Source: Schmidtea nova (Eukaryota). From it: a DNA stretch of 64,000 bases. Positions 23,530-44,856 of the stretch are shown piece by piece. The DNA is taken from contig CM097882.1 in NCBI GenBank assembly GCA_044892505.1, positions 183,024,001 through 183,088,000 of the forward strand. The letters are read 5' to 3'. Position numbers and translations under genes: made by a program. How positions within the stretch are numbered: the stretch's first letter is position 1; the number at the start of each line of letters is the position of its first letter. The notes under the pieces are model-generated. The model was not told the origin of the DNA, did no database searches, and was given only the letters and a program-made list of their open reading frames with translations.

Positions 23530-23715
23530 AAACTGATTAACAAATGTTGAAATTGTGTTAAAATATTAGAGTTCATTAGTGCATTTTTGTTTTGTTGTTT
23601 TGAGTTTTGGTTTTGTGTTTTTAATAGTTCGTATTGTAACCTAATAATCCTATAATCAAATTTTAATTTTTCACATAATTTAATCATAAAGTAAATATCC
23701 TAAATAAATTATAGA

Positions 23716-24336
23716 ATGACCACCGATTTGATACAGAGAGAATTGGAAAAGATGTGGCGGATCCGGAGAGCCCAGGACAAAGAATTGGGTCTCCTCAAGG
23801 CACAATTGATCAAAGCAGAGGCACAGATCGCATACTTGCGCAAAAGCTGGTTTGCTCCGGCCCGAATGAAGGAGCAAATCAGTAAAACCGAGCGCGCCCA
23901 ACAGACTGCAGCCGATTACCAAATGGAATGGGAGGCCACAAGGATAGAACTCCGAAAATGCCTCCATTCCGTAACTGCCTCATATATTGAGAAAGAGCTC
24001 AGAGAGCAAATCCGTCCGGTTACGTACCAAGCGTGGACATCAGAAAAGAAGACGGTAAATTCGATTGGCACGGATGTCGCCGATCTAATCGAAAGTCGGA
24101 ATGAGACAGCTCCTGCAGCAAATGCAACCACCTCATCGGCGAATGCGCACCAGAAACGCAAGCGCATTGGGCAGAAACGGCGAAGACAGAGGAAATTATT
24201 TGCCCAGCAATTACAAAGCCAAGTAGATGGTCTACATCAGATGACCGAGGAGGCATTATTGACGGAGATTTTCCCTCCGGCTGGAGTTTTTTTCGGAATT
24301 GATGAAAACTTAAATAAAATTTTCGTGTTAATTTAA
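23716..24336 (+). CDS. LTR-encoded coiled-coil protein with Arg/Lys-rich motif (206 aa), also at 50342-50962
   Basis: Heptad-like N-terminal half and a KRKRIGQKRRRQRK basic motif. TTATAG|A-ATG context; AATAAA at 24397. Confidence 0.7.
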   Translation: MTTDLIQRELEKMWRIRRAQDKELGLLKAQLIKAEAQIAYLRKSWFAPARMKEQISKTERAQQTAADYQMEWEATRIELRKCLHSVTASYIEKELREQIRPVTYQAWTSEKKTVNSIGTDVADLIESRNETAPAANATTSSANAHQKRKRIGQKRRRQRKLFAQQLQSQVDGLHQMTEEALLTEIFPPAGVFFGIDENLNKIFVLI

Positions 24337-24788
24337 AATTGTTATCGTTCTTTTAAATGGATTTAATTAACTTTACAAATGATTAGATAAAGATAGAATA
24401 AAAGTATAAACTCATTTTACAAAATACCTAATAGAGATAAATAAATAATTAAACGAGCATTTGTTGAAATACTTCTTGCAGAATGAGAGAGGTTAAAGAT
24501 AAATTTACTGAAAGATATTGCGGAACACCCAAATAGATGATTAAAGCATAAGTCCTTCTAACGGCAGCGATGAACCCGTAAACATAAATGGGGAGTAGTA
24601 CTAGCGATAGTGCTCACCTGCCCATCATTGTTTAACCACCCTGCGCATCACCAACTTGGTTATACAGGGAAATAATCAAGGGCGCTTGAGTGTAGAATTG
24701 CAATTTTGTGCATGATCATGGATGAGGGAATCCCTAGTCATTGTTAGAGCATTTTTCATCTAACCCCTCCATGAACCCAGCATAAATT

Positions 24789-24806
24789 TGGGGGCTCAGC
24801 CGGGAT
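24789..24806 (+). promoter_or_regulatory. Primer-binding site, tRNA-Pro-like
   Basis: TGGGGGCTCAGCCGGGAT, 6 nt after the LTR end; 16/18 identical to the tRNA-Pro PBS TGGGGGCTCGTCCGGGAT used by MLV. Confidence 0.85.
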
Positions 24807-25112: not shown

Positions 25113-25574
25113 ATGGAGGAAAAACTGAAAGAAATTGAAGAATTTCTCAACACAGAAAGCGAAACATTAGAAACGATTGGCAAGAAAATAAACCGATTTA
25201 GAGAAATTGAATTTCAGGAACCCACAACACAGACTGAGGAAACAGAGGAATTAATAAAGATAACAGAGAGAACAAGAAAAATCGACATAAAGACCCGCTA
25301 CAAATGGTACAGAACACGATTAGAAAACGCAGAATTAAATATTAAGTGCAAGCAAATAGAACAACAATTAACCTCAACATACAATCAATGGAGGGCGCAA
25401 GGGGTAGAAGCAGCGAAAAAATACCGACAGTGCTATATATGTGGGGATAGCGAGATACAAATTATGTTTTTACCTTGCGGACATTTTCGTTTTTGTAAGA
25501 TATGTGCCAGCAAGTGCGACCTATGTCCTATGTGCAACCTGAGGATAGACGATAAAATTATTGTATATTTATAA
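25113..25574 (+). CDS. Coiled-coil plus C-terminal C3HC4 RING protein (IAP/MDM2-type RING)
   Basis: CYICGDSEIQIMFLPCGHFRFCKICASKCDLCPMCNLRI at the extreme C-terminus. No BIR motif seen. Confidence 0.85.
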   Translation: MEEKLKEIEEFLNTESETLETIGKKINRFREIEFQEPTTQTEETEELIKITERTRKIDIKTRYKWYRTRLENAELNIKCKQIEQQLTSTYNQWRAQGVEAAKKYRQCYICGDSEIQIMFLPCGHFRFCKICASKCDLCPMCNLRIDDKIIVYL

Positions 25575-26055
25575 TAAATAAATTTGAATGGAATTTTATT
25601 GGTTTATTAATGATGAAATCATGGGTACAATTGTCATATATAAATAATTTTTGAGCTACTGCAAAGTAGTCCGATAAGAATCCATTGGGAGGTACCGATT
25701 GATCAACCTAGTCAGGGTGTATAGAAAGGGGCCCATCGCAAATGTTGGAAAGTTTTTGTGATGTGATTGATCACCACATCCTGCATTAATGGACCAACGC
25801 GATCTTTTTGTATATTTTGGTTGGGGAGAGAGATAGGGAAATCTTGATGGAGTAAAGCGCGCACAGAGAAAAATAAATAAAAAGTTGAAGCAGACTGATC
25901 AGGAATTAGTTATGATAGAATAAAGAGATAAATGACAATTTTTGAAAGAATAAAAGGTGCATAGTCAGCTCGCATAGAAGTAGTTATAACTCAGCTGAGA
26001 AATTTTAATCGCTAGCGAAGTTAAGAATTGTGATTAACCGGTTAAATAAAGTTAG

Positions 26056-26433
26056 GAGATTTGTCCCTTGAAACAAAGGGTTATGAGATTTGTCCCTTGA
26101 AACAAAGGGTTAGGAGATTTGTCCCTTGAAACAAAGGGTTATGAGATTTGTCCCTTGAAACAAAGGGTTAGGAGATTTGTCCCTTGAAACAAAGGGTTAG
26201 GAGATTTGTCCCTTGAAACAAAGGGTTATGAGATTTGTCCCTTGAAACAAAGGGTTAGGAGATTTGTCCCTTGAAACAAAGGGTTATGAGATTTGTCCCT
26301 TGAAACAAAGGGTTAGGAGATTTGTCCCTTGAAACAAAGGGTTATGAGATTTGTCCCTTGAAACAAAGGGTTAGGAGATTTGTCCCTTGAAACAAAGGGT
26401 TATTAGCGGTTTGTCCCTTGAAAAAAAAGGGTT
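26056..26433 (+). repeat. Tandem array of a 29-bp unit, 12 near-perfect copies plus 1 degenerate
   Basis: GAGATTTGTCCCTTGAAACAAAGGGTTA[T/G], with no spacers. Confidence 0.95.
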
Positions 26434-26475
26434 GAGGCCAATGAGCCATATTGAATGACCTAGCTAGGCGTTATG

Positions 26476-26699
26476 GAGAGATTAAATTAAGGCCAAGAGA
26501 GCCATTTGAGAGATTAAATTAAGGCCAAGAGAGCCATTTGAGAGATTAAATTGAGGCCAATAGAGCCATTGGAGAGATTAAATTAAGGCCAAGAGAGCCA
26601 TTGGAGAGATTAAATTAAGGCCAAGAGAGCCATTTGAGAGATTAAATTGAGGCCAATAGAGCCATGTGAGATATAAAATTGAGGCCAGAAGAGCCATAG
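26476..26699 (+). repeat. Tandem array of a 32-bp unit, 6 near-perfect copies plus 1 degenerate
   Basis: GAGAGATTAAATT[A/G]AGGCCAA[G/T]AGAGCCATT[T/G]. Confidence 0.9.
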
Positions 26700-27308
26700 T
26701 GAATTATAGAGATATCCGGATAAATAGTAACAGGGGGAATATAGACCCATAGTATAATCGTCGACGAGATTTAGAGTAGTGCGCACCAGTAGTTAAGAGA
26801 ATGCGAGTAAAGCTGATTATGCAACCTTAAGTAAAGCATGCAAGAAGAATAGTAAAAATTTGGGCTGACCGGAGCAACCGGCAGAATGAGTAAAACGATT
26901 GCTAGCAGGGAATAATGAATAGAAATGATAAAATAATGATAAACGAGTCAGAAAGACTCAGGTAATTAGAGCGCTCGAGCGACCAATAATTTGGGAAACT
27001 GTGGGAAAAGTAATCGATTTGATAAAACATAGATAATTATTACGACGTAAATAGATAATTGTGACCAGTCTATAGATAATTTAAATAGACTAAAAATAAA
27101 GGGGAATCTGGGAATTGGGAAATAATGAAAACCCAGTAATAAGTAATCCCGAAAGAAAGGGAATAAAAGCGCGACGATAACAATAATGTATCGTTGAGGA
27201 CCTTTGTATTTTAGATATACAAATCAATCAAACCAACCAATCGAACAAGAAGAATCAGAACACGATAAGAGATAAGACAGGAAAATTGAGTATACAAAAG
27301 TAATCCCG

Positions 27309-30300
27309 TTGAGAACAGGAGTAAAGAGTGTCGTAATAAAGCCAACAGAAAAGAAAGTCGGCAGTGAGAGCAATAAAAAAGACAAAACTAGTACTACAAC
27401 AAAAACAACAAAAAAGCAGAAAGCCGGCAAAGATAACAACAAGAACCCACAAGGGAGTAAAGCGAGGAAAATAATAAGAGATAAAGCGATTATCGAAAAC
27501 GATAAATTGTCAGTAGTAAGCAACAGTTCAAGTAACAAAGAAAACCAAGCAGAACCCAAAGAGAGCCAAACAAGTGAAATAGAAGTAGACGAAACTAATA
27601 ACGATAATATAGAAGAATTAGAGAGTGAAGTAGAACAAGAAGTAGAAATCAACGAGAGCGATAACGATAGTATAATATCAGATCACGAAGTAATAAGAGA
27701 AACAGAAAGCGATTCAAGCTCGAGTAAAACGGAAGACGAACATAACAACGAACTAGAAACAAGAGGAAACGAAAGTAAAATAACTCAAGACAGCGGAATT
27801 GAAATGGGTGAACCAAGAGAAGAAATAAAGGATAAATTTTCAGGAGAACCGTTTAACGGAGATGCGAGCAAATTAGAAACCTTTTTAAAAGAATTTGGCA
27901 TATTCGTGGAGGTATGCAAGTGGAAAGCTGAAACAACGGTAAGCAGAATTCAGTTATATTTGAAAGATAGTGCATTGGACCTATATTTGGAAGCGAAAAA
28001 TGGTACCAATCCACCTACAAGCTGGACAGCGATAAAGGATTTTTTCCAACAAACATTTGGAATAAATAAAGTGCTGAGCGAGGCATTCATAGAATTCTCA
28101 ATGAGGAAACAAAAGATGAATGAATCTAATGCGGTATACGCGAGCGAACTGAAAAAATTAGCAAAATCGGTATTCAAGGATGGAGGTCCAATAAACGAGG
28201 AGTTAATGGCAGCCATCTTCATAGGAGGATTAAGAAGACCCGACATAAGAGCACAAGTGGGATGTCAAGGATGCAAAACCATAGATCAAGCGTTAGAAAC
28301 AGCTAACCGATTTGAATTGCATATGATAGGAAGCGAAGGCAGAATTTATTTAGCCATGGACACAGCGCAAACCGAACCAGAAGTAAATCTCAACAATCAT
28401 ATTCCAAATTCGCAACAATTAAACCGACCACCCCCTCAACGAAGGAATGAAGGAAATAAAGTGCAGAACTTTGAAAATCAAAACAATTACAACCCTCAAA
28501 GACAAACAAAACAATGTAAAACATGCGGGAAGTTGGGACACTGGCAGCAAGAATGCTATCAAAATTTGAATTGCGGAAAATGTGGAGTCAAAGGACACTC
28601 GGAAAGCAGATGTTCTACAATAATCTGTTTTAATTGCGGACGACCTGGTCACTATTCAAGAAATTGCGGACAAAAAAGTAATCAACGAGGAAACTGGCAG
28701 AGTAATGGGAACCGACCAAATTACGGAAATCAAGCAAATACCGTAAACCGACCAGATTATGGGAACCAACAAGTCAATAATAACAATAATCAGAACAAAA
28801 CCACCCCCAAAGAAATACATTTAATGCAAGAAGTCCAAAGATTGACGGAACTTATAAACAATACGACGAGAGGAAATCCGCAAACCAATCAACAGCAAAT
28901 TAGCATGATGAGAAAAATAGAAAGCGAAAACGAACGATTGAATCGAGAAAGTCAAGCACGACACGCTCAGGAATGGGCAAGAATACAAAGAGAGGATGAA
29001 CAAAAACAGCAAGAAAGAGAACGACAACCTCTAAGAATTAACATGCTAAGAGCAACAAACCAAACAGACACTCGCGAGAAAGAAACCACACTGGAAATGA
29101 ATTCGATAGACCCGAATCCAGCCGACAACGAAAGTCGAAAAGAAATAGTACAAAAAGATGAAGAAGTAGAAAAAGAAGCAGAAAAGGGAGAGGAAACCGA
29201 GATAAACCAGGAAGAGAGAAGAAAAATTTGGAAAAAAGGAATGATGGTAATCATGCCCAACGACCATATGTTTCGATTCCAATATAACGCAAAAGAAAAG
29301 GTGGAAATACTGTTCAATAAAGTAAACCAGATGATTCCAGGAGTGACAAAACTGCCCAGAGAAGCGTTCTTACAAATAGGAGATGCACCATCAGTAAAAT
29401 TGAAATTAACGGATATATGGGAAAACATGGGAGTAGTAGAAACAAAAAGAAATGTGATGAGAATTAAAGAAATAGAACCAGAAGAAATACCACCACCAAT
29501 ACGTCACGAAACCCGAATCCGGCGAATATTTGAAGGAAAAATGATAAGAAGACGTTTAAAAGAGATAGACGAGTTGGGAAAGAAAATGGAAAAAGTCGAA
29601 GTAATAGAGGACAAGAGTGAACCAACACCAGAAATTGACAAAAACGAACCAGAACCAACGGAGAATATACAAGGAGAAACGAACCAAACAGCACATATTA
29701 ATATGTTAAGAAATACCACCAGAGAGTTTTCCGATGAAGAAGAAGATAGTGATATCAGTAGCCTAGCAGGAGACATATTAAACGAATCCGAAGACGAAAA
29801 TAAAGAGAGAGAAGTAATAAAGACCTCAGAACCTACACAGATAAAAGTAGATGAAATCCAGAAATTACTAGATAACTCGCTAGAAGTAATATATAACGAA
29901 GAGTTCATGGACAAGAAACAATATCGGAAATTCATGAAAGCATTATTACAAATGAACTACAAAGAATGGTTACAAGACCGGGAAGTAGACATGTTGAATC
30001 GATACGTAGGGAAATTAATAGAGGAACCACTTCTCAATTACACCATCTCAATAATAATAAATACATCTACACCAAGAATCTGGATCAAAACTCCATTTAC
30101 AGATGATATCTACAGATGGGTAGAGGACAGACTAGGGAGTTCATATAAAAACAAATTCATCTATTCGCAGAATAGACTCGTAAAGAAAAGAACGCACTTA
30201 GTAGAAACAGGTATATGGCCAGGAGAAATAACCCTATTATCAATATGTGATGAAAAGGAAGAAGAAAACCTACAAGAAGTTGCAAGGGAGGCAAACACGT

Positions 30301-32669
30301 GCTTCGAAAGGAGAATAAAACCTCGGTTAGAATACGAGAAAGAACGAGTCTTACGAAAGAATCTAAATTCCCTGATAGAACAAATCATACCACAAGTCAA
30401 AAAACATAGAAAAGAGTTAATGAGAAGCGAATACGAGAAATTGAAACGATGTATTGAGTGCATACGTGACACAAGTCACACGAGATGGTCACAAATCTCA
30501 CACGATAAATTAATCGCAAAAATGGGAAAAACAATGTTTAGACAAGGGAAAATAACAGATCTAAAAATTTTAGTAGAATTGCCTAACGAAGACACCAAAG
30601 AAATCGAAGTGGTAGCGGACTGCACCATTAAAGAATTAATAAATGTCATCAACGAGACACTAGTGCAAAGAGAACCAGAAGACGAAGGGGAAGACGACAT
30701 AATCATACAATACAACGAACATGTATTATGGGATCACGATGAGAGACGACTATATAAAATCGGTATATGGGATAATCACCAAACCATCCACGTTAGCAGA
30801 ATGGACGATACACCAAGAGAAACTGCTAAAGACGAGAAAAAAGAACGGGAACGACGGAAAGAAGTTGTGCGCAAATTACAACAAATAGTAGAAATTTATC
30901 GAAATTGGCGAATTTGGCCAGAGTGGGAAAATGTATTAGAAGAACTCAATCTCAACAGACGAATACGAACACCCGTAGAAAAACAATGGAACGAGAAAGG
31001 AAAATGTTGGGAACCAAAAGAAGGGGAATATGAAGAAGAATATAAAAGAGGAATTGAAGATGACTGCGAACCAGAGATGGGAAGGGTTTGCATGGTGACA
31101 AGGAAAGCTACGCCAATAGACCTAGATGGACCAGAAACCGCGGCTATGTGGTTGGAAAGGGAAAAGCAAAAAACGGAAGAATTTGTCGAAATATTAAAAA
31201 CTAATGCGCACGGTAAGAGAAAAGTAATAAAGGGTCTCGCAGATTTTTTCGTGGTAAATGGGGAAGATATAACATGCTTGCGTAAAGTAGCAAAAGCAAT
31301 CGCGGAATATAAAAGAGTTAACGAGTGGTGTCCGGAACAACTAGACCATGTAATTAGGAAATGGAGAAACCAAGAATTCTCGCAGGAAATTCCACAGAAA
31401 GTACATTTAAGAATAATATACCCAAACAAGGATAAGGAAGAGTTGTGGGTAGGAATAGCAGAAAAAATTCGAGATATTAAAAAGAAATTGAGATACGAAC
31501 CACCATTCCATTTACAACACCAAGGACGATCATTAGATAACAGTTTGGAAATCGGAATAACACCAGCACAATTAGACCTCATGAATACCTTGACAGTAGA
31601 AGCAATAGCGGGTCAACCATTGAAACGTAAAGAAGAAAACCATAAACCACACGGAAGTATAAGTACGCCGAGCCCGATGAAATCAGCACTAACACCAGGG
31701 ACAAGTTCGAGACGATCTGAGACAACACCCAGAGGAAATAGAGAAAGGACTCCACCACAACCATACGACGTGGACGAAATTTTAACGGATAGCGACGATA
31801 TGATAGAAGAGTTAACCGAATTAACAAGGGAAAAGGACGATAACATTTTCGAAAGAATACAGGAACTACCTACGACAATACAAGTAACTAACACCGGAGA
31901 AGCAGAAGTCGAAGAAGAAATAATAATAGAAGAAGTAAACGATTTGATAGAAGACGAAACGAGAGGAGCGAATGTCGAAAATGTACAATTAACGCAAGAA
32001 ATGGAAAGATGGTTAGAGGAAAGAGCTAACGAACCAAGAGATGTTACGGAAGAAACAGGACGGGCAACAAGGTTCGTGGAAACAGGTACAGGAATGGATA
32101 AACGACCTAGAGGTAGACCTAAGACAGACCCAGCGAATATAGTTATAAGAAATAAAGATGAAAAGAGACAAGATCAATGGGAATTATGCCTAAGGAAACT
32201 AAATAAAATTGCGGAGATGAAAGAAAAAGAGACAACACCAATATGTCAAGGGGAGGAATGGATATCGAAAACAATAATGGAAATATTGGCAATAATTGAT
32301 CCGGAATTAAGAAAATACTGGCGTATAACTGAGATAAGCGAAAAGGCGAAGTCACTACACAGCGCAATCGCACCCATCTTACCGGAATTCATAAAAGAAA
32401 AGACGAAGTCAAACCATTTAGACTGGCAAGGAACCACTACGTTAATAAAGAAACTGACAGAAAGAGCGGAAACGGATAACAAATACGTAATAGCCATTGC
32501 ATACACGATATACAATCTGTTGACATTGAGTAGAGGTCGACCAAAACCCACTGCATTAGAGAGACATATAAAAAATACCGCAAAGATTATAGCTAGAGAA
32601 ATAGAACCCTACGTCATTAACAAAGGAGGATGGGAAACATTTATAAAAACTAACCAGAAGAAAACATAA
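27309..32669 (+). CDS. gag: Extended Gag polyprotein: acidic/basic N-terminus, capsid-like region, 3 CCHC zinc knuckles, ubiquitin-like modules, C-terminal Bcl-2-like domain
   Basis: FSGEPFNGDASKLETFLKEF capsid-like start; CKTCGKLGHWQQEC, CGKCGVKGHSESRC and CFNCGRPGHYSRNC; BH2-like YVINKGGWETF. The track start is TTG and the first ATG is at 27804, so the true start is uncertain. Confidence 0.9.
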   Translation: MRTGVKSVVIKPTEKKVGSESNKKDKTSTTTKTTKKQKAGKDNNKNPQGSKARKIIRDKAIIENDKLSVVSNSSSNKENQAEPKESQTSEIEVDETNNDNIEELESEVEQEVEINESDNDSIISDHEVIRETESDSSSSKTEDEHNNELETRGNESKITQDSGIEMGEPREEIKDKFSGEPFNGDASKLETFLKEFGIFVEVCKWKAETTVSRIQLYLKDSALDLYLEAKNGTNPPTSWTAIKDFFQQTFGINKVLSEAFIEFSMRKQKMNESNAVYASELKKLAKSVFKDGGPINEELMAAIFIGGLRRPDIRAQVGCQGCKTIDQALETANRFELHMIGSEGRIYLAMDTAQTEPEVNLNNHIPNSQQLNRPPPQRRNEGNKVQNFENQNNYNPQRQTKQCKTCGKLGHWQQECYQNLNCGKCGVKGHSESRCSTIICFNCGRPGHYSRNCGQKSNQRGNWQSNGNRPNYGNQANTVNRPDYGNQQVNNNNNQNKTTPKEIHLMQEVQRLTELINNTTRGNPQTNQQQISMMRKIESENERLNRESQARHAQEWARIQREDEQKQQERERQPLRINMLRATNQTDTREKETTLEMNSIDPNPADNESRKEIVQKDEEVEKEAEKGEETEINQEERRKIWKKGMMVIMPNDHMFRFQYNAKEKVEILFNKVNQMIPGVTKLPREAFLQIGDAPSVKLKLTDIWENMGVVETKRNVMRIKEIEPEEIPPPIRHETRIRRIFEGKMIRRRLKEIDELGKKMEKVEVIEDKSEPTPEIDKNEPEPTENIQGETNQTAHINMLRNTTREFSDEEEDSDISSLAGDILNESEDENKEREVIKTSEPTQIKVDEIQKLLDNSLEVIYNEEFMDKKQYRKFMKALLQMNYKEWLQDREVDMLNRYVGKLIEEPLLNYTISIIINTSTPRIWIKTPFTDDIYRWVEDRLGSSYKNKFIYSQNRLVKKRTHLVETGIWPGEITLLSICDEKEEENLQEVAREANTCFERRIKPRLEYEKERVLRKNLNSLIEQIIPQVKKHRKELMRSEYEKLKRCIECIRDTSHTRWSQISHDKLIAKMGKTMFRQGKITDLKILVELPNEDTKEIEVVADCTIKELINVINETLVQREPEDEGEDDIIIQYNEHVLWDHDERRLYKIGIWDNHQTIHVSRMDDTPRETAKDEKKERERRKEVVRKLQQIVEIYRNWRIWPEWENVLEELNLNRRIRTPVEKQWNEKGKCWEPKEGEYEEEYKRGIEDDCEPEMGRVCMVTRKATPIDLDGPETAAMWLEREKQKTEEFVEILKTNAHGKRKVIKGLADFFVVNGEDITCLRKVAKAIAEYKRVNEWCPEQLDHVIRKWRNQEFSQEIPQKVHLRIIYPNKDKEELWVGIAEKIRDIKKKLRYEPPFHLQHQGRSLDNSLEIGITPAQLDLMNTLTVEAIAGQPLKRKEENHKPHGSISTPSPMKSALTPGTSSRRSETTPRGNRERTPPQPYDVDEILTDSDDMIEELTELTREKDDNIFERIQELPTTIQVTNTGEAEVEEEIIIEEVNDLIEDETRGANVENVQLTQEMERWLEERANEPRDVTEETGRATRFVETGTGMDKRPRGRPKTDPANIVIRNKDEKRQDQWELCLRKLNKIAEMKEKETTPICQGEEWISKTIMEILAIIDPELRKYWRITEISEKAKSLHSAIAPILPEFIKEKTKSNHLDWQGTTTLIKKLTERAETDNKYVIAIAYTIYNLLTLSRGRPKPTALERHIKNTAKIIAREIEPYVINKGGWETFIKTNQKKT

Positions 32670-32678
32670 GCCAAGAAT

Positions 32679-35600
32679 ATGAAAAAGAAATTCGAAAAAA
32701 TATTGGAAGAGTTAGAAAAAGAACAAGCAGGAACAGGAAACGCAAAGTCATCAATGAATCTGAGTGCCATAATAATGATGATGTTGATTTGGATGATTAG
32801 CACCGATAGCGCAACAGCATTCGAAGTGTTTGATTGCGACCAAATGAAGTTAGGAGAAAAGTATTCATTGAGAGGTACGGAGCAATGCAAAGATGCAACT
32901 CCAGTAGAGTTGCAAAAGATTAAAAAGGAACAATGGTACCACGTGTATCAAGAAGCAGAACTCATAAAGACAATGGTGAATGAATGTAAAGTGCAGAAGA
33001 CGAGATTCGCATTCTACTGCGGGAGAGGACATTATTCAGCAATTGTCATGCCAGGAACGGAAAGAGAACCAATCGTGTTACAAGGAGAAGACTGCGAAGC
33101 ACTGTTTAAACATGGAGAAGTAACAACAAGGGATAAAATCAAGATAAGAGGAAAGCCAGGAATGATGATGCAACAGACGTACTATGTAGCAGGACGGATT
33201 ACGGGAGGAGAAGGATATTGTCAAGGCGAAACCTACCCGATATTCGGAGTACCCGCAACCAACTTAGTGGTGATGGATACGTATATAGTCGAACTAAAAA
33301 GCTACGAAGCATTCTTCGAACCAACAACGGGAGAAATGAAAACGTTATCCATGTGTAAAATCGACAGGAGCATGTGTCAAACGGGAATGTCAACATTAGT
33401 GTACAAACCAAAGGTGAACGAATGTCAATTACAACTGCTACAAGGAGCACAGTTCGACGAAATCCAAGGAAAAACGTTTCAGGAAGAAGACGATGACGAC
33501 AAAGCTAGAGCAAAGCATCTCAAGGAAGCTTTGGAGAATAAAAGACAATTGAAACCGGATCATAGAGAAAAACGGATAGAGATGAGAGCCACACCAACAG
33601 TGTTGATAACCACAAATCAAGATGTGGGAATGAGATTCATAAAAGGGAAAGCAACCCTTAAGTGTAGTACAACGGTATATGAAACGAATTACCCAGGAAT
33701 ATATGTGTCAAAACAAGAAGTGCCAAATGCGAAACCCAAAATCGACACAATGGATATCAAACTACACTTGTATGTGAATAATAAAATGGATTTCCTATTC
33801 CATAGAGGACAAGCCTCATTACAAAAAGTGTATTACGATCTGATCAATAACGATTGTATACTGAATCGAGAAATACTAAAGACAAAATTGGCCGTAGCAA
33901 TTACGAATCCCGATAGCGCGATGCCATTATTACCACTGAGAGAAGGACATTTCGGAAGAGTGGTTGGAGAAGCAATGTATGTATACATCTGCGAAAAGAC
34001 ACACGCATCGCTAGCAGCAACAACACAGTTGAAACCTGGAACCTGTACAAATGAGTTAGAAATCGATTACAAAGGAAAAGTACGATACGTTCAACCGGTG
34101 ACGAGAATCATCAATCCACCAGGGTTTGAACCAAATCCATTCAACTGTAGTAATGCGTATGGACCGCTTTATCAGAAACCAGATGGTAAATGGGTTATGT
34201 TCCCAGGAAGATCCGAAGTGATAGCACCAAGAGAATTCGAGCTAATGCAGTTGTCAAAGGATAGGCAATTCAGCGACGTAGATGTCTCAAACAATGGAAT
34301 ATATAGTCCGAAAGATTTAGAAGCAGCAAGGCAGAATATATTATTCCCAGCAAGAAGAGAAGCATTACTGTCAAATATCGTAACGATAACGGGAGGAACG
34401 GATTATCGAGAAGGACCGAATTATGAACTATTGTTGTCACCAGCACATTTCAAGAAAGCCACAGAAAATATGATGAAAGCAATGTGGGGAAGATTTTTGA
34501 TATTCGGACAAATGATGGCCGGAATACTGGGGGTCATATTAATAATCCAAATCGTCAGAGTGATAATAACGCAAATGCTCGCATGTTTCGATATCTACAA
34601 GAGAGAAAAGAAAGTGAATTGGAAAATGGTAGTAGGGTTTTTACCATTCCTTGCGAAAACGATGGTGTTACACGGGCACTCAAAAGATATCCACCGAATA
34701 AAAAGACTCCTAAAGATATTAGCAAAAATGAAGGGAACAGATGAAGAAGTAGGACGAAAATTTAAAAAGATAATGAATGATGAACAAGCAAGACAACAGC
34801 TCAAGAGAGAAAGAAAAGGTTTATGGGAGAGGATGAAAGGATATAAAACCCAAAATGATTCGAGTGACGACGACGATGACGATGACGACTATAAGGGAGG
34901 ACAGGTGTATAAGAACCAAGCACCACAATACATCGAAAAGAATCCAGCCGACGCATGGAAATGTTACGCACCTCCACCAACAATGTATCAAGAACCACTA
35001 CAAGGAGGAAAAAATAGCACGATGCAAATGATGCCAATGACAAATGTATATCCCATGATACCAGAAGATTATAAAATGAGAAGATGTAGAAGCGTAGATC
35101 CACAAGGGGATACACACACGATCGCAGTAATGTCATCAAACACAGGTCCAGTATTAACCACGACAATAGAGATTAACGGAAGGGAAATCGAAGCAATGAT
35201 CGACACGGGAGCAAACATTTCCGCCATCGACATCAAATGGATACCACAAGAGCAAAGACGAGAAATAGAAAGGACAAACGTCCATGTAATTGCATGTAGC
35301 AAAGAAGTTGTAGAAGTAGCAGGAAGATGGTGGGTAAAAATACGCCATTTAAACACGGAAATCGATACGTACGTAGCTGTCATACCAGCATTAAGCGTAC
35401 CTTGCATTATCGGAACAGATTTGATGCCAGCACTATTTAAAGAGATTGTAATCGATCTTGGAACAATGAGACTAAAAGATCGCACCGGACAAATATGCGC
35501 AATAGAAGCCAAAGTGACAAGTTCAAAGCAAATGATAATACCCGCAAGAAAGGAAAAAATATGTTATGTAAAAATAGATCCAACAATCCAAGGGGATATG

Positions 35601-38600
35601 ATTTTCGAACCAAGTAAGAGATTCGAGAAAAGAAAAGCGTTGCCAATGGCAAGAGGACTAGTTAACATAAACGATGATGGAGAAATCCCAATAAACGTAG
35701 TAAACTTCGATGAAGAGGACAAAATAATATACGAAAACGAAAGATTAGGTAAATTAACCCCAATGATGGATATCGAACTACCAATAGAAGGAGCAGAGAA
35801 AGATAAAGAACCAACCTGGAATATTGATAGTGAATTATTAAACGAGGATCAAAAGAAGCAGTTAGAAAAACTTTTGATGGAGTATAAGGATATATTTGCA
35901 GCATCCGATTTGGATCTAGGAACATGTGATGTCACACTACATACAATACCATTAACAGATGAAACACCAATTGCATTAAGGCCGTACAAATTAGCGGAAG
36001 CACAGAAAGCAGTAGCAGAAGCAGAAGTGAAGAAAATGTTGGATGCAGAAGTAATCGAACCAAGTTGTTCACCCTGGCAATTTCCAGTGGTAATGGTAAA
36101 GAAAAAAGACGGAACACAGAGATTCTGCATAGACTATCGAAGATTGAATACAGTGACAAAAAGGGATACTTACCCATTACCAGACATTAATGAAATGCTA
36201 TTAACATTACAAGGAGCAGCATATTTTACGTCGTTAGATCTGAAAAGCGGATATTGGCAAATAAAAATGAAGGAAGAAGATAAGGTGAAAACTGCCTTTA
36301 CCATCGGGAGAGATTTATATCAATTTCGAAAAATGCCATTTGGATTAACGAACGCACCAGCATCATTTCAGAGATGCATGAATTTCGTCACCCGTGGAAT
36401 AAAGCAGTGTATGGTCTACATAGACGACTTATTAATTTATTCTAGCACGTTTGAACAACACATACAGGATATTCGAGATGTATTCGTTAGGCTTAGACAA
36501 TGGAAGTTAAAACTCAAGCCATCAAAATGCGATTGGGCAAAAGAAAAGGTTACATTTTTAGGACATATAGTGTCAGCAAAAGGAAAAGAACCGGATCCCA
36601 GAAATATCGACAAAGTAAAAGAATGCCCAGTACCAAAAACAATAACCCAAATACAAGAATTTCTCGGACTATGTGGATACTATAGAAAGTTTATAAAAGA
36701 TTACGCTGGAATCGCAAAGCCTATACAGGAACTGGTAAAGAAAGATGTATCATTCATATGGGGAGATGAACAACAAACAGCCTTTGAAACATTGAGAGAT
36801 AAACTGATAACCGCACCCATATTAGTACACCCAGACTTTAAGAAGCCATTCTTACTTGCAACGGATGCAAGCGGATATGCAGCAGGAGCCGTATTAGGAC
36901 AATACGACGACGAAGGAAAAGAACGGGTAATCGGATATTATAGCCGAACATTCAAAAAGCACGAGAAAAATTACTCAGTAACAGAACGGGAAGCATTAGC
37001 AATTATATTAGCTATTAAACACTTTAAATATTTACTATGGGGTCACATCATTTGCATAACAACAGATCACCAACCGCTTGTATGGTTAGGACAGCACAAG
37101 GAAACATCCAGTAGATTAATGCGATGGGCAATGCAGTTACAGGAGTACTCACCAGACATAAAATTTAAATCAGGAAAAGCGAATGCGAATGCAGATTGTA
37201 TGTCAAGACTGACATTTCCGGAATTAACCGATCCTGATGTACAACGAATTTGTGTGTTAATAGCGGAAGATTTAGATTTTAGTGAGTTAAAGAAAGATCA
37301 ACAGGAAGACAAAGAATTGGGACAGATCATAGAGTTCCTAACGTCTCGAAATATGGAGGTATTTAAGGATAATAAGGAATTAAAGGAACATATAGGAAAA
37401 TATCAACATCGCTACATAATAAATAAAGGATGGTTGTTAATACAAGACGGGGAAAAGAGATTGATGTGTTTACCGGAAAACAGAAGGAAAGAGATAATGA
37501 TCAAATACCATGATGGGAAATTGGGAGGTCATATGTCCGAGAAAAAGACCATAAATCGTATGAGACAAAAATATTATTGGCGAACAATGGAAGAAGATAT
37601 AAAGGAATGGATTAAAAATTGTCTAACTTGCGCAACCAGAAAGGATAGTGGGAAGAAATGGAAGAACCCGCTACAACCAATGCCGATACCAGCAGAGCCA
37701 ATGACAACTATAGCAATGGACGTAATAGGACCACTACCAGAAAGTTTAAACGGAAATATTTATATATTGGTAATAACGGATTATCTGACAAAATTCCCGG
37801 AAGCATTTGCCATGCAAGATCAAAAAGCAAAAACCGTAGCAAAAATTTTGGTAGAAGAAATATGTTGCAGATACGGAACTCCAAAACAAATACTCACAGA
37901 CCAAGGAACTAATTTTATGAGTGAGTTATTGAACGAGGTGACAAACTATTTCAGAATAGCAAAATTGAGAACTTCACCATATCACCCGCAAACGAATGGA
38001 CAAACAGAGAGATTCAACGGTACATTGATTAGAATGTTATCAAATTACGTCAGCAGACACCAAACTGATTGGGACGAATACATAAAATTATGTTTAATGG
38101 CATACCGAATGTCGATACATGCAGCAACAAAACTAAGCCCATTTCAACTTATGTATGGAAGAGAATGCAACATGCCCATAGATTTAGAGTATCAGCCACC
38201 ATTATCACAATATATGGAAGACGACGACTACGTAACCAAATTCAAAGAAAGAATGCAGGAAATATGGAAAACGGCAGAACTCAACATTAAATTTTATCAG
38301 GAAAGTTATAAGGACTTACACGACCAGAAGAAAAATGTTAAAGCGAACGATCTAAAACCAGGAGATTGGGTGATAATAGAAACTCCCGAAATAATACCAG
38401 GAACAGTTAAGAAACTCCAAAGACCTGGAAGAGGACCTTATGAAATTATATACAAAAAGGACAATAATGTCAAAGTTAAGCTAATAAATCGACCGTTAAT
38501 ACGACCCATATATGTAAACACCTGCAGATGTAAGAAGGTGCCTAAAACGATAACTACAACACCAGAAAATCGAATAATAACTAGATCACAAACAGCCAGG

Positions 38601-41600
38601 ATAAATATGCTCAGAGCTAATGTAACTGAAGACGACAAAGCAGAAATAAGGCAAAAAGAAATCAGAAACAAAGAGATCATATTGAAGGCGAGAGAAATAA
38701 TGGGAAGATGGCATGTTAGAGACGAAGCAGGCATATCAAGGGATATTAGACATATGATTAGCCGTTACGCACAAGGATTACCAACCGAACCAATTATTTC
38801 TGAATTATTGGAAAAAATCCCTGAAATACTCTTATTGAAAGATGTAGGAGGACAACCAGCCTTACATAATGCGATAGAGTGTAAAAACATTGAAAGAGCA
38901 AAAGAATTCCTAAAAATCGCAAAAGAAACAAACCAAAACTTGGACGTAGGGAATCGGGAACAAGAAACTCCATTAATGACAGCCGCAATCCACCAAGCAG
39001 ATAAAGAAATGATAGACCTATTGATAAAAGCTCATTTCAGTTGGACAGAACGAGATAGAGAGGACAAAACAGTGCTAAATCACGTAATATGGAGTTCTCA
39101 CCAACCAATGCTGAAATACATAATAGCTAACTCCACTTGGGAGATAGACGAACTAGTTAAAGGAGACATTATCAAAGAGGCAATCAAAATTGGTAAATGC
39201 AACACGATCCGTAAGTTAATCAAATGGAAACGACCAGAAGATGATACATGGGTCTTAGACATAAACGAAGTATACAGCGAAGGACAAAACGCACTGTTAA
39301 GATACCTTTTGAAATTTACTTGTGATCAGAAGACATTACTAACCTTATTAGACAGAGGAAACATAAACATCACAAAGAATGAAGAAGAATACAAATTCGA
39401 TAAAGAGAAGGAAGCCTTATTCAACAAGATTAGGAAATGGTGTGCGAAACCACTTGATAAACTAATAACATACAAAGACATAAACAATTTTAACGAGAAA
39501 TACCAGACGATAGTAAGCGAATATGAGGAATTAGTAAAAATCTTAAACCATCCCGAAAAATGCAAACAGGTTTTAGAGAAAAAAGAAAGAGAAAGTAACA
39601 AGAAACTCACACCACTCTTCAAAGCAGAAGCACCATACCAAGCTAGACTAGATGCGATACAAGAAAAAGCAAAAGAATTGTTACCGGAATTCGAGAATAG
39701 TAAACATGCACTGGAAATACTCGGCGCATTAGTTGAAAAAGTACACGCATACGCAAAAGGAACATACAATGGTAACGACATAGTAATAATAAAAAAGGAA
39801 ATGCCAGTAACATTCCTATTACCAAAAGACGGAATAATGCCCATACATAGAGCTCTACGAAATGGCAAAGATAGGAAAGTAATGGAAATTGCAAGAGTAA
39901 TGCTAAATTGCGGAAGCAATATGAATATGATAGACGAGAAAGGAGATACACTTATGGTATTTGCAGCAAGGGCCAAAACGAAAACAAAGGTATTAGAAGA
40001 ACTATACAAAGCAGGTGCAGGACTTACAGGAAAGACAGATAAAGATAATTCGATATTAGATGTAGCATTATTAACACACAATTGGGAAATGGTCAATTTC
40101 ATTAAAACCGTCCCAAATCAGGAAGAAATAGATCACCTAACTGATACGGTCAAGAAACCCAGTGTACTAGCAATGATGAACAACGTCGAACTAACAGAAT
40201 CAATACTTACGTGGATAAATCCTAATACTAACGAACCAGCATTCAGGATTAATAAATTTACAGAACATAACCAAAACTGGTGTATAAGAAGTGCCTTAAT
40301 AACGTATAAATGGCCAGAGATATTGAAGATGTTTATGGAAAGAAAGGATCTAAGAATCACAACCAGCCCGAAAGAAGAAAAATACACAGGCAAATGGAAA
40401 GAATTGATGAAGACATACATCAACAATTGGATCAAGGCCAAAAAGGAAATCTTGGAATATAAATCCACTAACAAAGTAATACCGGAGCAGGTAGAAACAC
40501 AAGAATTTGAGGCAAGCAATCTAACGACATTAGCATATGCAAAATTAATAGAAGAAATCAATGTCGAGGACGACATTTTCGACGAGCCAGGGGGAGATGA
40601 CAACACAGATAGTGACGACGATAACAACTCAGAAAATTCAAGCGATCACGAACCACCCGATAAAGAGGAAAACGAGAGAAAAGACAAGAAACGAGACAAG
40701 GAAGGAAAGAAAGGTGAAGACGAAAAACAAAGAGATGAAGAGAGAGAACAAGGAACAAACGACCAAGGAGATAAAAATGACACCCAAAGAACAGGTTATA
40801 AATCAACTATAAAACCATTCTTCAGACCAGAGTTACTATTATTAACAGTGATTTTAACGTTAATTAATCCAAGTCAAGGAATGACATGTGAAGAAAGGGC
40901 AATAATACAAATAAAAAACGCAAAAGGAATCGAACGAGTATGTTGGTCGAAAAAGGACAAAATCACGGAACAAAATAGCCCGATGGATTGCAGAATCTCA
41001 GAACACGAGCAAGAAATCATAGAGATCAACGACCTAGATCTAGATACCTGGTACAAAATATGCACCGTTAGGAAACAAAAGCATCCAAGATCACACAACA
41101 CAATCGCATGTGCAAAATACCAAACACCTAAAGCAGCCATGACAATACAACAGTCACCCAAAGGAGATTACATCCTCGGAAAATGTGGAAGAACAGAGAC
41201 ACAGGGAACAGAAAACAAAAAACCCCAGGCAATAGATAAGCAAACAACACCAACCCTACGAATTACAATAAAGAGGCCCGAAACAAGAATTGCCACAAAC
41301 GAAACCGAAAGAGTGTCTTACCAAATGGAAGTATTATGCTTAGCACTCATACTAATAATAATAAAACGATTAGAGGAAGGAATAGAAATTGAAACTATGA
41401 CAATAACAGAAGTAGAAGATACACAGAATACTAACATAAAATGTTGGGCGAGGAATAACGAGGAAATCGGCGTAAATGAAATAAGGAAAAGTCGAAAACC
41501 AACAACGAATAAAGTAATTAAAGTATCCAAAGTAAAAGCAGATAAGACGTACAAACTATGCCTACTAGAAAAAGAGACAAACAAGAAAGGTACCACAAAA

Positions 41601-44282
41601 TGTAAAACATTCCAACCTGGAGAAGTAATAAAGTTCAGAAGGAGAACGAGGAAGAGAAATAAACAAATCAAACAGAAAGTAAACATAACATTAGAAATAA
41701 AAGAGATAGAACCAAATGTGAAAGGAGTATGCTGGAGGAAGTACGAAAAAGAAACGAATGAAAGAAAGACACCACAATGTCGAACAAACACAGGAACAAC
41801 GACAATTCAAATAAAAGGTTTAGAAAGTAAACAAACCTACGAAATATGTTTAGTAAAGAAAAATGATCAGATAACGATAAACGACCTAGAATGCGGAATA
41901 TACACCACTTCATCCGGAACAAGAACTAAAACGTTAACACGAAAAAATAAAAGAAGACAACGAAACAAAGGGAAACCGAAGTACACCACTACCTTTAAAA
42001 ACAATAAACAACCGATAAGCCAAGAAGTTACGACAAAACCCGAGAAAAAGACATCAGCAACTCTGACATTATGGAAAATAGAGAATAAAACATTGGAGAT
42101 ATGTTGGATAATAGTCCAGAAACATATAAGAAGACAATCAAGAGAGTGCAGAAAAACAAATAAAGAAATCAAGATCGAAAAACTACAATTTAATAGCGAG
42201 TACGAAGTATGTACAATAGAAAAAACGGACGCACTAGGAAACCAACAAGAAAGATGCGAAACCTACTATACACCAGCGAACGCAACATCAAAAGGAATAA
42301 CAAGGAAACTCGAATTCAGGGAACTAAGCCAAACGAATGAACAAATGGACGTAGAAAAAACAATAACCGACCCTCAAGCAAAATGGACACCCGAAGAAGT
42401 TATCAAGGAAGTCAAAAGAAAGCAAGAGGAACGGGAACAATTAATGAGAAAACTAAAGGGACAATACGGAATAATGTTCAACCAAAGCGAATCTATACAA
42501 ACAGACGAGAATAAAGAAATTAAAGAACTAATTGGCTTAGGAATATTAACAGCGACCATACCAGTAATAATCGCGTTATCAGCTATATGGATACGCAAGA
42601 TAAACCCAAAGAAATCGGTAACCCAATGGACAAATAGAGACAGTACAAGCCATGGAGTGGAAATGCTAGAAGAAGAAGCACGAGAAGAACCAAAAAAGAA
42701 AGAAGCAAAAAGCGGAAAACTAGGAATAAACAACAAAGACAAGAAAATAAAAGAGATTAAAGGAGAAGAGAAAAAATATGAAAGGCGAACCAGAAGCCTA
42801 CCGCAGAGTTCAACATGGTTGAGTCTAACAATAATATTGACATTAATTAATAGGGAAGAAGCAATAAACCCACAGACAGGGATAAAAGTAATAAATGTCC
42901 AGGAAGTCGAGAAAATATGTTGGTATAGAGAAGATGAACCAATTGGAGAAAATAACCCACTAAAATGCATAATCAGAAAATCCGACCAGGATATCGTACG
43001 AATAGAAGAAATGGATGGAGGAACCATGCATCGGATATGCATAATAGAAAAGGAAAAGAAGTCGGGACTACCTAAGACAGTCGTATGCCAGAAATATGAA
43101 ACGCCTAGACTTGAATGGTATAGAGTAAAACCAACAAAGAAAGAAATCAAAAACACAATAGATCAACCAGCAACTCAGATAAGAAACACAACGGATAAAC
43201 CAGGAGAAGGAGAGAAAAGCACCAATAAAACGAGAGAAAGAATATCACCCCAACAGGAGTGCGTATGCATAGCATTAATAATAGCAATGTCCAAACGTAT
43301 CAATAAAGGAATAACAATAGAACAAATGGCCATGACAATAAGGAGAAAAGGCCGGAGTAGCAACAAAATATGCTGGGGATGGTACAACGAACAAAAAGAA
43401 TACCAAGTTCAGACAAGCGACGAATCACGAACAAACAAGGAAACCGAAATACAAGAAATACAAATGGACGGAGAAGGAAGTATATGTATATGGGAGAAAG
43501 GAATCCAAGAAGATCAACCCGGAATAGAAAAGTGCAAGACATTCCAAAAAGGAGAAATTCTGAAATTCGATGAAAAAGAATTAACCAAAACAGAAAGAAC
43601 TCTGACATTAACAGGACTTGATCAGACAGTGAAAGGAATATGTTGGACAAAACATAACCCAGAAGGAGAGGAAGGTAACCTAACCCACTGTAAAGAAACA
43701 GGGAATAAGGAAAAAGTCGAATTAAAGAAAATGGAAGTAAATAAGACATACGCGATATGTACCTTCACTAGAAAAGGTTCAGAAAAACCAGAATGCGGAT
43801 TATATCAGATCTCAGAGAAACTACAACAACAGATCAAACCATTAAACGTGGAAAACCGAACAAAAGAAAATAACGTCAAACAACTACTAAATCGCCATTG
43901 GTCTACACAAGAAGTAATGAACAAAGTCAAGAATCAAGTACAGAAGGAGAAGAAGCCAGAGGCTCAAACCCAAAATGAGATAAAAGCGAATCAGAATAAA
44001 ATCAAAGCAACAAACCGTGGAAAAACAGTAATAGGATTAATCAGTATAGGAATATTAATAGCATATGGGATAATGACGACAAGCATAATAGTATATTGGA
44101 GATACAGAAAGAGAAACAAAGCGACAGCCATACAATGGCCAGATATTAAAATTATGAAGCAAAGAATAGAAATACCAGAAGAGATACAGCAAGAATTCCA
44201 AAGAAGAACGAAAGGTAACGAATTCTGGAAACAAAGAGAAGACGAAGAACGATACGAGGAAAAGACGATAATGATGGTATAG
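32679..44282 (+). CDS. pol: Env-Pol-cargo polyprotein (3867 aa): signal peptide, chuvirus-like glycoprotein with TM, PR, RT, RNase H, integrase, ankyrin repeats, two FN3-like membrane modules
   Basis: MIDTGAN (35202), VYIDDLL (36417), ATDASG / NYSVTEREALA / TDHQPL, HDGKLGGH..CLTC, MDVIG..TDQGTNF..TERFNGTL, GPY. Ankyrin motifs GQPALHNA, ETPLMTA and GIMPIHRA. Confidence 0.95.
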   Translation: MKKKFEKILEELEKEQAGTGNAKSSMNLSAIIMMMLIWMISTDSATAFEVFDCDQMKLGEKYSLRGTEQCKDATPVELQKIKKEQWYHVYQEAELIKTMVNECKVQKTRFAFYCGRGHYSAIVMPGTEREPIVLQGEDCEALFKHGEVTTRDKIKIRGKPGMMMQQTYYVAGRITGGEGYCQGETYPIFGVPATNLVVMDTYIVELKSYEAFFEPTTGEMKTLSMCKIDRSMCQTGMSTLVYKPKVNECQLQLLQGAQFDEIQGKTFQEEDDDDKARAKHLKEALENKRQLKPDHREKRIEMRATPTVLITTNQDVGMRFIKGKATLKCSTTVYETNYPGIYVSKQEVPNAKPKIDTMDIKLHLYVNNKMDFLFHRGQASLQKVYYDLINNDCILNREILKTKLAVAITNPDSAMPLLPLREGHFGRVVGEAMYVYICEKTHASLAATTQLKPGTCTNELEIDYKGKVRYVQPVTRIINPPGFEPNPFNCSNAYGPLYQKPDGKWVMFPGRSEVIAPREFELMQLSKDRQFSDVDVSNNGIYSPKDLEAARQNILFPARREALLSNIVTITGGTDYREGPNYELLLSPAHFKKATENMMKAMWGRFLIFGQMMAGILGVILIIQIVRVIITQMLACFDIYKREKKVNWKMVVGFLPFLAKTMVLHGHSKDIHRIKRLLKILAKMKGTDEEVGRKFKKIMNDEQARQQLKRERKGLWERMKGYKTQNDSSDDDDDDDDYKGGQVYKNQAPQYIEKNPADAWKCYAPPPTMYQEPLQGGKNSTMQMMPMTNVYPMIPEDYKMRRCRSVDPQGDTHTIAVMSSNTGPVLTTTIEINGREIEAMIDTGANISAIDIKWIPQEQRREIERTNVHVIACSKEVVEVAGRWWVKIRHLNTEIDTYVAVIPALSVPCIIGTDLMPALFKEIVIDLGTMRLKDRTGQICAIEAKVTSSKQMIIPARKEKICYVKIDPTIQGDMIFEPSKRFEKRKALPMARGLVNINDDGEIPINVVNFDEEDKIIYENERLGKLTPMMDIELPIEGAEKDKEPTWNIDSELLNEDQKKQLEKLLMEYKDIFAASDLDLGTCDVTLHTIPLTDETPIALRPYKLAEAQKAVAEAEVKKMLDAEVIEPSCSPWQFPVVMVKKKDGTQRFCIDYRRLNTVTKRDTYPLPDINEMLLTLQGAAYFTSLDLKSGYWQIKMKEEDKVKTAFTIGRDLYQFRKMPFGLTNAPASFQRCMNFVTRGIKQCMVYIDDLLIYSSTFEQHIQDIRDVFVRLRQWKLKLKPSKCDWAKEKVTFLGHIVSAKGKEPDPRNIDKVKECPVPKTITQIQEFLGLCGYYRKFIKDYAGIAKPIQELVKKDVSFIWGDEQQTAFETLRDKLITAPILVHPDFKKPFLLATDASGYAAGAVLGQYDDEGKERVIGYYSRTFKKHEKNYSVTEREALAIILAIKHFKYLLWGHIICITTDHQPLVWLGQHKETSSRLMRWAMQLQEYSPDIKFKSGKANANADCMSRLTFPELTDPDVQRICVLIAEDLDFSELKKDQQEDKELGQIIEFLTSRNMEVFKDNKELKEHIGKYQHRYIINKGWLLIQDGEKRLMCLPENRRKEIMIKYHDGKLGGHMSEKKTINRMRQKYYWRTMEEDIKEWIKNCLTCATRKDSGKKWKNPLQPMPIPAEPMTTIAMDVIGPLPESLNGNIYILVITDYLTKFPEAFAMQDQKAKTVAKILVEEICCRYGTPKQILTDQGTNFMSELLNEVTNYFRIAKLRTSPYHPQTNGQTERFNGTLIRMLSNYVSRHQTDWDEYIKLCLMAYRMSIHAATKLSPFQLMYGRECNMPIDLEYQPPLSQYMEDDDYVTKFKERMQEIWKTAELNIKFYQESYKDLHDQKKNVKANDLKPGDWVIIETPEIIPGTVKKLQRPGRGPYEIIYKKDNNVKVKLINRPLIRPIYVNTCRCKKVPKTITTTPENRIITRSQTARINMLRANVTEDDKAEIRQKEIRNKEIILKAREIMGRWHVRDEAGISRDIRHMISRYAQGLPTEPIISELLEKIPEILLLKDVGGQPALHNAIECKNIERAKEFLKIAKETNQNLDVGNREQETPLMTAAIHQADKEMIDLLIKAHFSWTERDREDKTVLNHVIWSSHQPMLKYIIANSTWEIDELVKGDIIKEAIKIGKCNTIRKLIKWKRPEDDTWVLDINEVYSEGQNALLRYLLKFTCDQKTLLTLLDRGNINITKNEEEYKFDKEKEALFNKIRKWCAKPLDKLITYKDINNFNEKYQTIVSEYEELVKILNHPEKCKQVLEKKERESNKKLTPLFKAEAPYQARLDAIQEKAKELLPEFENSKHALEILGALVEKVHAYAKGTYNGNDIVIIKKEMPVTFLLPKDGIMPIHRALRNGKDRKVMEIARVMLNCGSNMNMIDEKGDTLMVFAARAKTKTKVLEELYKAGAGLTGKTDKDNSILDVALLTHNWEMVNFIKTVPNQEEIDHLTDTVKKPSVLAMMNNVELTESILTWINPNTNEPAFRINKFTEHNQNWCIRSALITYKWPEILKMFMERKDLRITTSPKEEKYTGKWKELMKTYINNWIKAKKEILEYKSTNKVIPEQVETQEFEASNLTTLAYAKLIEEINVEDDIFDEPGGDDNTDSDDDNNSENSSDHEPPDKEENERKDKKRDKEGKKGEDEKQRDEEREQGTNDQGDKNDTQRTGYKSTIKPFFRPELLLLTVILTLINPSQGMTCEERAIIQIKNAKGIERVCWSKKDKITEQNSPMDCRISEHEQEIIEINDLDLDTWYKICTVRKQKHPRSHNTIACAKYQTPKAAMTIQQSPKGDYILGKCGRTETQGTENKKPQAIDKQTTPTLRITIKRPETRIATNETERVSYQMEVLCLALILIIIKRLEEGIEIETMTITEVEDTQNTNIKCWARNNEEIGVNEIRKSRKPTTNKVIKVSKVKADKTYKLCLLEKETNKKGTTKCKTFQPGEVIKFRRRTRKRNKQIKQKVNITLEIKEIEPNVKGVCWRKYEKETNERKTPQCRTNTGTTTIQIKGLESKQTYEICLVKKNDQITINDLECGIYTTSSGTRTKTLTRKNKRRQRNKGKPKYTTTFKNNKQPISQEVTTKPEKKTSATLTLWKIENKTLEICWIIVQKHIRRQSRECRKTNKEIKIEKLQFNSEYEVCTIEKTDALGNQQERCETYYTPANATSKGITRKLEFRELSQTNEQMDVEKTITDPQAKWTPEEVIKEVKRKQEEREQLMRKLKGQYGIMFNQSESIQTDENKEIKELIGLGILTATIPVIIALSAIWIRKINPKKSVTQWTNRDSTSHGVEMLEEEAREEPKKKEAKSGKLGINNKDKKIKEIKGEEKKYERRTRSLPQSSTWLSLTIILTLINREEAINPQTGIKVINVQEVEKICWYREDEPIGENNPLKCIIRKSDQDIVRIEEMDGGTMHRICIIEKEKKSGLPKTVVCQKYETPRLEWYRVKPTKKEIKNTIDQPATQIRNTTDKPGEGEKSTNKTRERISPQQECVCIALIIAMSKRINKGITIEQMAMTIRRKGRSSNKICWGWYNEQKEYQVQTSDESRTNKETEIQEIQMDGEGSICIWEKGIQEDQPGIEKCKTFQKGEILKFDEKELTKTERTLTLTGLDQTVKGICWTKHNPEGEEGNLTHCKETGNKEKVELKKMEVNKTYAICTFTRKGSEKPECGLYQISEKLQQQIKPLNVENRTKENNVKQLLNRHWSTQEVMNKVKNQVQKEKKPEAQTQNEIKANQNKIKATNRGKTVIGLISIGILIAYGIMTTSIIVYWRYRKRNKATAIQWPDIKIMKQRIEIPEEIQQEFQRRTKGNEFWKQREDEERYEEKTIMMV

Positions 44283-44763: not shown

Positions 44764-44856
44764 ATAAATAAAGCGGAAAACTGTAAATATGTAAAAATAA
44801 AAACAAGAAAAATCAAAAAATGAATGACAAGTCGAATGTATATATTATTGTAGAAA

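Follow-up and report, generated by a model that had tools for sequence, protein, structure and literature searches.

The window, a stretch of 64,000 nucleotides from Schmidtea nova, harbours at 21631-51408 a Ty3/gypsy LTR element of 29,778 bp which is laid out like the Burro elements of planarians (Table 1). The insertion is young, because its two LTRs differ at only one of 3,152 sites. Between the LTRs lies a long polyprotein frame, split by a single TAA into a part with Gag (ORF1) and a second part (ORF2), and several accessory ORFs. That both parts share one frame with a single stop between them had already been proposed from the sequence alone, and this is correct (27276-32666 and 32670-44279, with the TAA at 32667-32669).

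Table 1. Features of the giant gypsy element, in positions of the window.
Feature	Position	Strand	Remarks
5' LTR	21631-24782	+	3,152 bp, TG...CA; 1 mismatch to the 3' LTR; 4-bp target duplication ATAG
Accessory ORF with C-terminal C3HC4 RING finger	25113-25574	+	Pfam zf-C3HC4_3, E 1.8e-11
Polyprotein frame, Gag part (ORF1)	27276-32666	+	1,797 codons; Bcl-2-like domain at its end
Gag core	about 27954-28238	+	Pfam Retrotrans_gag, E 1.2e-4
Three CCHC knuckles	28515-28667	+	in the Gag part
Weak ubiquitin-like match	near 30570-30710	+	Pfam Ubiquitin_4, E 0.056 only
Divergent Bcl-2-like domain	32244-32654	+	profile homology, purifying selection
BH1-equivalent position, AETDNKYVIAIAY	32466-32504	+	alignment to host Bcl-2 proteins
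BH2-like motif YVINKGGW	32610-32633	+	GW at its end invariant in A1; in A3, G157 is invariant and W158 nearly so
In-frame TAA	32667-32669	+	splits frames of 1,797 and 3,870 codons, both in the same frame
Second part of the polyprotein frame (ORF2)	32670-44279	+	3,870 codons
Hydrophobic helix and polar c-region ending A-T-A	32757-32819	+	predicted cleavage between 32819 and 32820
Chuvirus-like (HSV gB-type) fusion glycoprotein	32820-34568	+	PF24664, E 9.5e-71
Envelope transmembrane helix	34518-34568	+	hydropathy
Pol in gypsy order: protease, reverse transcriptase, RNase H, integrase	35160-37988	+	Pfam
Ankyrin repeats, 3' of integrase	38862-39131	+	Ank_2, E 7.7e-12
Accessory TRAF-like ORF (RING, zinc fingers, MATH)	44854-46233	+	MATH_2, E 6.2e-21
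3' LTR	48257-51408	+	3,152 bp

The polyprotein frame is open for 176 codons (27276-27804) upstream of its first in-frame ATG at 27804. Position 27309, to which the sequence-only reading had referred for the frame, is a TTG and not an ATG; this TTG is kept in all 43 exact-flank matches. Translation may start at a non-AUG codon, on a spliced message or at ATG 27804. Six bases past the 5' LTR, at 24789-24806, lies a putative primer-binding site, which resembles a tRNA-Pro site, and the leader upstream of gag contains tandem arrays with units of 29 bp and 32 bp (26050-26700). Inside each LTR (23050-24336; 49676-50962) two ORFs of 159 and 210 codons are found, neither of which has a Pfam match at E < 0.05.

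The RING ORF at 25113-25574 adjoins the 5' LTR; it is IAP-like by its C-terminal RING and invites comparison with B-IAP of Burro1. No BIR domain was matched by Pfam in this ORF, and neither a BIR nor a dUTPase-like domain in the element; HHpred was used in the Burro paper. Past the TRAF ORF, at 46320-48053, two more accessory frames follow, one for a coiled-coil protein, the other for a small protein that contains a hydrophobic helix. Within ORF2, two signal-like segments (40833-40880 and 42816-42863), each with LTLIN followed by a small residue, stand ahead of cysteine-rich regions which are weakly FN3-like (E 0.0077) and carry each a transmembrane helix at the end. The two signal-led regions probably represent additional surface proteins which are released from this polyprotein. 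The window also contains an ordinary gypsy element on the minus strand (53363-58387); its terminal repeats match, and its gag and pol are in different frames.

The in-frame stop and the open frame of the family

Read from stop to stop, the joined frame of the window copy comprises 5,668 codons, and TAA 32667 is its sole break. The sequence-only reading had taken this codon for a readthrough site which links Gag to the following helix and might also set the ratio of Gag to Pol, and had suggested to compare it across copies. For a sample of copies the 30 best-matching loci were fetched, from 40 scored out of 638 candidates; codon 32667 is a stop in two of these 30, the window copy being one of them. 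An unbiased count was obtained genome-wide by pattern matching with fixed exact flanks. Among the 148 junctions matched in this way, two carry a stop and 146 a sense codon. The two stop carriers are 3.1% divergent, stand on separate branches of the tree and have one exclusive column in common. By chance, one given site would be hit again in the other 147 copies with P of about 0.19, as calculated from the singleton rate of that transition class. One descent for both stops is disfavoured by the tree and the local haplotypes, although a short recombination tract (106 nt are identical) is conceivable. Across 1,266 codons (3.8 kb) of the 30 copies we found seven further in-frame stops, each in one copy only.

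Of the 150 copies scored with the domain as query, 33 have, counted by hand, a single open frame of 5,641-5,736 codons; in the remaining ones the frame is broken at various places. The polyprotein of about 5,650 residues, which had been expected as a product of readthrough, is thus the ordinary product of the family. The junction is open as well in four other families of the genome (L042, L087, L055 and L084), which were found by a Pfam Bcl-2 scan combined with an envelope scan, and it is read through in six proteins from other samples. In all five families of the genome the Bcl-2-like domain, the linker, the hydrophobic helix and the envelope start lie in one frame. The family therefore encodes Gag, a divergent Bcl-2-like domain, the envelope and Pol in one open frame. 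Because there is a single family frame, the junction cannot set the ratio of Gag to Pol.

TAA 32667 represents the sporadic decay of one young copy and not a recoding signal, because it occurs in only two of 148 junctions, its carriers are not sisters, single stops are scattered elsewhere, and no stimulatory RNA structure was found 3' of it: with pseudoknot-free folding the downstream RNA folds no better than shuffled sequences (z +1.30, +1.55, +0.29). That this stop is the only break in the long frame of a very young copy, and that this codon is a stop in one further copy, is what speaks for programmed readthrough as the link between Gag-Bcl-2 and the anchor. These points are outweighed by the 146 sense junctions, which refute it as a family feature, by the open junctions of the four other families and by the two carriers, which are not sisters. 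Because unbroken copies join the Bcl-2-like domain straight to the envelope, no readthrough is required. We regard the stop as almost certainly not programmed, and programmed readthrough with an effect on the Gag:Pol ratio as extremely improbable. An error of base-calling or assembly, so that the copy would be unbroken in the animal, fits the otherwise intact frame and the nearly identical LTRs; however, single stops are scattered through other copies at a similar rate and the change belongs to a common transition class, and we consider such an error quite unlikely. Four contig sets of one study yielded short pieces, with no row at 32667. Taken by itself, the window copy would give a Gag-Bcl-2 product without an anchor, and neither envelope nor Pol. 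Since the stop is copy decay, the readthrough finding itself carries no weight. As a caution, when a young multicopy element shows one isolated in-frame stop, its sister copies need to be compared before the stop is interpreted.

The Bcl-2-like domain

When the domain of the window copy is searched alone, it matches neither PF00452 in Pfam nor a Bcl-2 protein among the PDB sequences, nor, at near length, any of 5.8 billion proteins; a sister-family query in a 'longer' search also gave no match, which is weak evidence. A profile that leaves out the window family and ends ahead of the helix does recognise it, with 51.1 bits for the domain and 44.1 bits within the whole ORF1. None of 1,000 shuffled sequences reaches 51.1 bits, the best shuffle scoring 11.6 and the reversed sequence 6.6. 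HHalign gives 96% for the window domain against its relatives and 79% against host Bcl-2 proteins, and 97.8% for the relatives against the host proteins. The profile of the five families matches Bcl-xL (E 4.6e-8) and retrieves 20 proteins among 1.84 billion, of both element type and cellular type. Sister families reach 33-35 bits against PF00452, above the cut-off of 31.4, and of the 14 rows in the alignment 13 match PF00452 at E ≤ 0.1, the window row being the sole exception. By profile the domain is a divergent Bcl-2 homologue, and in this respect the sequence-only reading was right.

The motifs which it had pointed out (LDWQGTTTLI, YVINKGGWETF, AIIMMMLIWMI and the SATA/FEV boundary) are all present where they were placed, but LDWQGTTTLI is not BH1. 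It lies one helix too early, because HHalign puts the host INWGRII on AETDNKYVI, within AETDNKYVIAIAY (32466-32504). The NWGR is therefore lost and TDNK stands in its place. Of the BH2 pattern W-x4-GGW, the GGW is kept and the first Trp is a Tyr.

The Pfam Bcl-2 scan of the genome yielded 149 matches, the majority in long frames. Eleven (L033-L041, L044, L052) lie in short frames and probably represent host genes or pseudogenes; the other 138 are for the most part located in long frames of elements.

Structure prediction had been suggested as a check on the fold. The AlphaFold models, one from the single sequence and one from 14 sequences, are of low confidence (pLDDT 52.8 and 57.2). Entries of the Bcl-2 family, which are highly redundant, make up 45 of 46 rows in one Foldseek list and 41 of 41 in the other, but the best E is about 0.1, and no search with these low-confidence models reached E ≤ 0.001. 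The top viral row is an adintovirus Bcl2 (E 0.38). A wide fold search placed the Bcl-2 of KSHV at rank 12 (Z 6.1, 117 aligned, rmsd 4.2), level with helical proteins that are not related.

The domain is under strong purifying selection: among 30 copies pN/pS is 0.057 in the domain, 0.09-0.10 in flanking Gag and linker, and 0.03-0.04 in the envelope. It is conceivable, if somewhat doubtful, that in the window family the domain has lost its binding of BH3 partners and serves some other function, such as a structural one or that of a membrane-proximal Gag scaffold. The TDNK in place of NWGR, the Tyr in place of the BH2 Trp and the window row as the only one without a Pfam Bcl-2 match are in line with such a loss. 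However, the low pN/pS argues against it, and so does the position of the domain amid apoptosis- and ubiquitin-related cargo (RING, TRAF).

The helix between domain and envelope

As the sequence-only reading had it, Gag has no transmembrane tail of its own: ORF1 contains no hydrophobic segment at KD17 ≥ 1.9. A helix does follow downstream of BH2: AIIMMMLIWMI starts at 32766, 47 codons from the first G of GGW (about 40 residues in the sequence-only reading). A hydrophobic stretch is found 32-50 residues past GGW in all five families and 30-59 residues past it in the six proteins from other samples, whereas six cellular-type Bcl-2 matches have their anchor 17-38 residues past GGW. The linker of 30-59 residues is long and poorly conserved, and in the alignment no conserved second cleavage site was identified within it. 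Domain and helix are adjacent in 12 of the 14 aligned sequences; the other two, P0004 and P0017, stop before the helix or lack it, and may be cut off. Separate initiation at ATG 32679 is not conserved, as a Met ahead of the helix is absent from the linkers of L042, L055 and P0014.

Both in the families and in the proteins from other samples the helix is followed by x-x-(A/V)-(Y/F)-D-C, the start of the envelope. Counting back from this motif by eye in 12 aligned sequences (two rows represent one family; P0004 and P0017, which fall short of the envelope, were omitted), position -3 is small throughout (12 of 12) and position -1 in all but one (11 of 12), the exception at -1 being the Met of P0007, while -2 is variable. 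Small residues at -3 and -1 are the pattern of signal peptidase sites. Because they are kept, the site appears to be of the signal-peptidase type, as the proposed envelope signal had implied. In addition, the helix of the window family is short and moderately hydrophobic (KD15 1.95-2.12), and thus fits a cleaved signal better than a lasting anchor. From this pattern we consider it very probable that the helix is the internal signal of the envelope protein and is cleaved. That it also persists as the anchor of the Bcl-2-like domain is plausible, and here we see the chances as evenly balanced.

As the most probable explanation of the whole region, and with high confidence, we propose a sporadic TAA in one copy of a Burro-type family whose frame is open, and a helix which likely is the internal signal of the envelope and would leave Gag-Bcl-2 on the ER membrane. 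The helix would enter the membrane co-translationally, its N side remaining cytosolic, signal peptidase would free the N-terminus of the envelope into the ER lumen, and the envelope transmembrane helix (34518-34568) would bring Pol back to the cytosol. The Bcl-2-like domain would thereby come to lie at the ER's cytosolic side, and would stay there for as long as no second cut releases it.

Such a second cut is the core of another explanation, in which the helix is the envelope signal only and the domain is later released by signal-peptide peptidase or by the protease of the element, to act unanchored or within Gag. We regard this as a real possibility, slightly short of an even chance. It agrees with the short h-region followed by a (-3,-1) site and with the length and poor conservation of the linker, and a precedent is documented in the core protein of hepatitis C virus, which is released from the E1 signal (PMC5402940). 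Against it stand the adjacency of domain and helix and the lack of a conserved second site in the aligned linkers. The stronger form of the proposal, that in Burro-type elements the helix is used twice, as the internal signal of the envelope and, after cleavage, as a permanent tail anchor for a captured Bcl-2 homologue, we put forward tentatively and as less probable than its failure. If it were true, each Gag and envelope made at the site of budding would come with one anti-apoptotic domain tethered to the ER. An envelope signal which also anchors the domain would explain why the domain lies directly 5' of env in five families.

Comparison with known systems

By its layout the element is a Burro-type giant gypsy element, set here against Burro1-4 by description. 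In the part of PMC6431247 on these elements, Burro polyproteins of 4,873 and 5,140 residues are described, in which a BCL2-like motif occurs and env lies in frame between this motif and the protease. Burro/GYPSM1 and our element have in common a size of about 30 kb, a single polyprotein, Gag with CCHC knuckles, the BCL2-like motif, env between it and the protease, the order PR-RT-RH-IN, ankyrins and MATH/TRAF cargo (PMC6431247). The differences to that description are the length of the polyprotein (about 5,650 versus about 5,000 residues in Burro), TRAF as a separate ORF 3' of the polyprotein, a RING ORF without a BIR match, no Pfam match to dUTPase, and the one stop in the window copy. The domain order is hence already known from Burro elements, and the double use of the helix, should it hold, would be a modest refinement; the Burro section of PMC6431247 is silent on a helix between BCL2 and env. 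The titles and abstract openings of the literature searched do not mention the double use; Lee et al. 2026 and Grohme et al. 2018, together with their supplements, lie outside this scope and may bear on the point. In its passages on BURRO1, PMC8532177 covers expression only.

Errantiviruses of the GAG-ENV-POL order with an HSV/gB-type envelope are described from Platyhelminthes in PMC13524379; a signal peptide or a transmembrane helix borders their ectodomain. They share with our element the gB-type envelope between gag and pol, and by eye family L084 resembles the row Smed_errantivirus_1 of that work. However, two Schmidtea elements listed there span about 14.8 kb, and the words 'BCL' and 'Burro' are absent from the paper.

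In comparison with cellular and viral Bcl-2 proteins (PF00452; Bcl-xL, Mcl-1, KSHV Bcl-2), the region of helices 4-8, the BH2-like GGW and a hydrophobic helix downstream are shared. In the element, however, NWGR is lost, the domain is embedded in a polyprotein, and the helix is farther off and is followed by a cleavage-type site and an ectodomain.

For a helix between a capsid-side protein and an envelope, the junction between core and E1 in hepatitis C virus (PMC5402940) and the C-prM junction of flaviviruses (PMC3437442) offer a parallel: the protein on the capsid side terminates in the signal of the envelope protein that follows, and remains anchored at the ER after signal peptidase has cut. 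Hepatitis C core is held at the ER by the E1 signal and its anchor is later removed (PMC5402940). The likeness is an analogy of mechanism only.

Anti-apoptotic cargo is reported for Burro itself. PMC13465017 cites a study by Lee et al. (Dev Cell 2026) on a BIR-RING factor (B-IAP) of Burro1 which is anti-apoptotic; the element described here has a RING ORF past its 5' LTR. The factor tested, as cited, is the BIR-RING protein and not the Bcl-2-like domain; if the latter is anchored, it would give these elements a second possible route against cell death, beside the reported BIR-RING factor.
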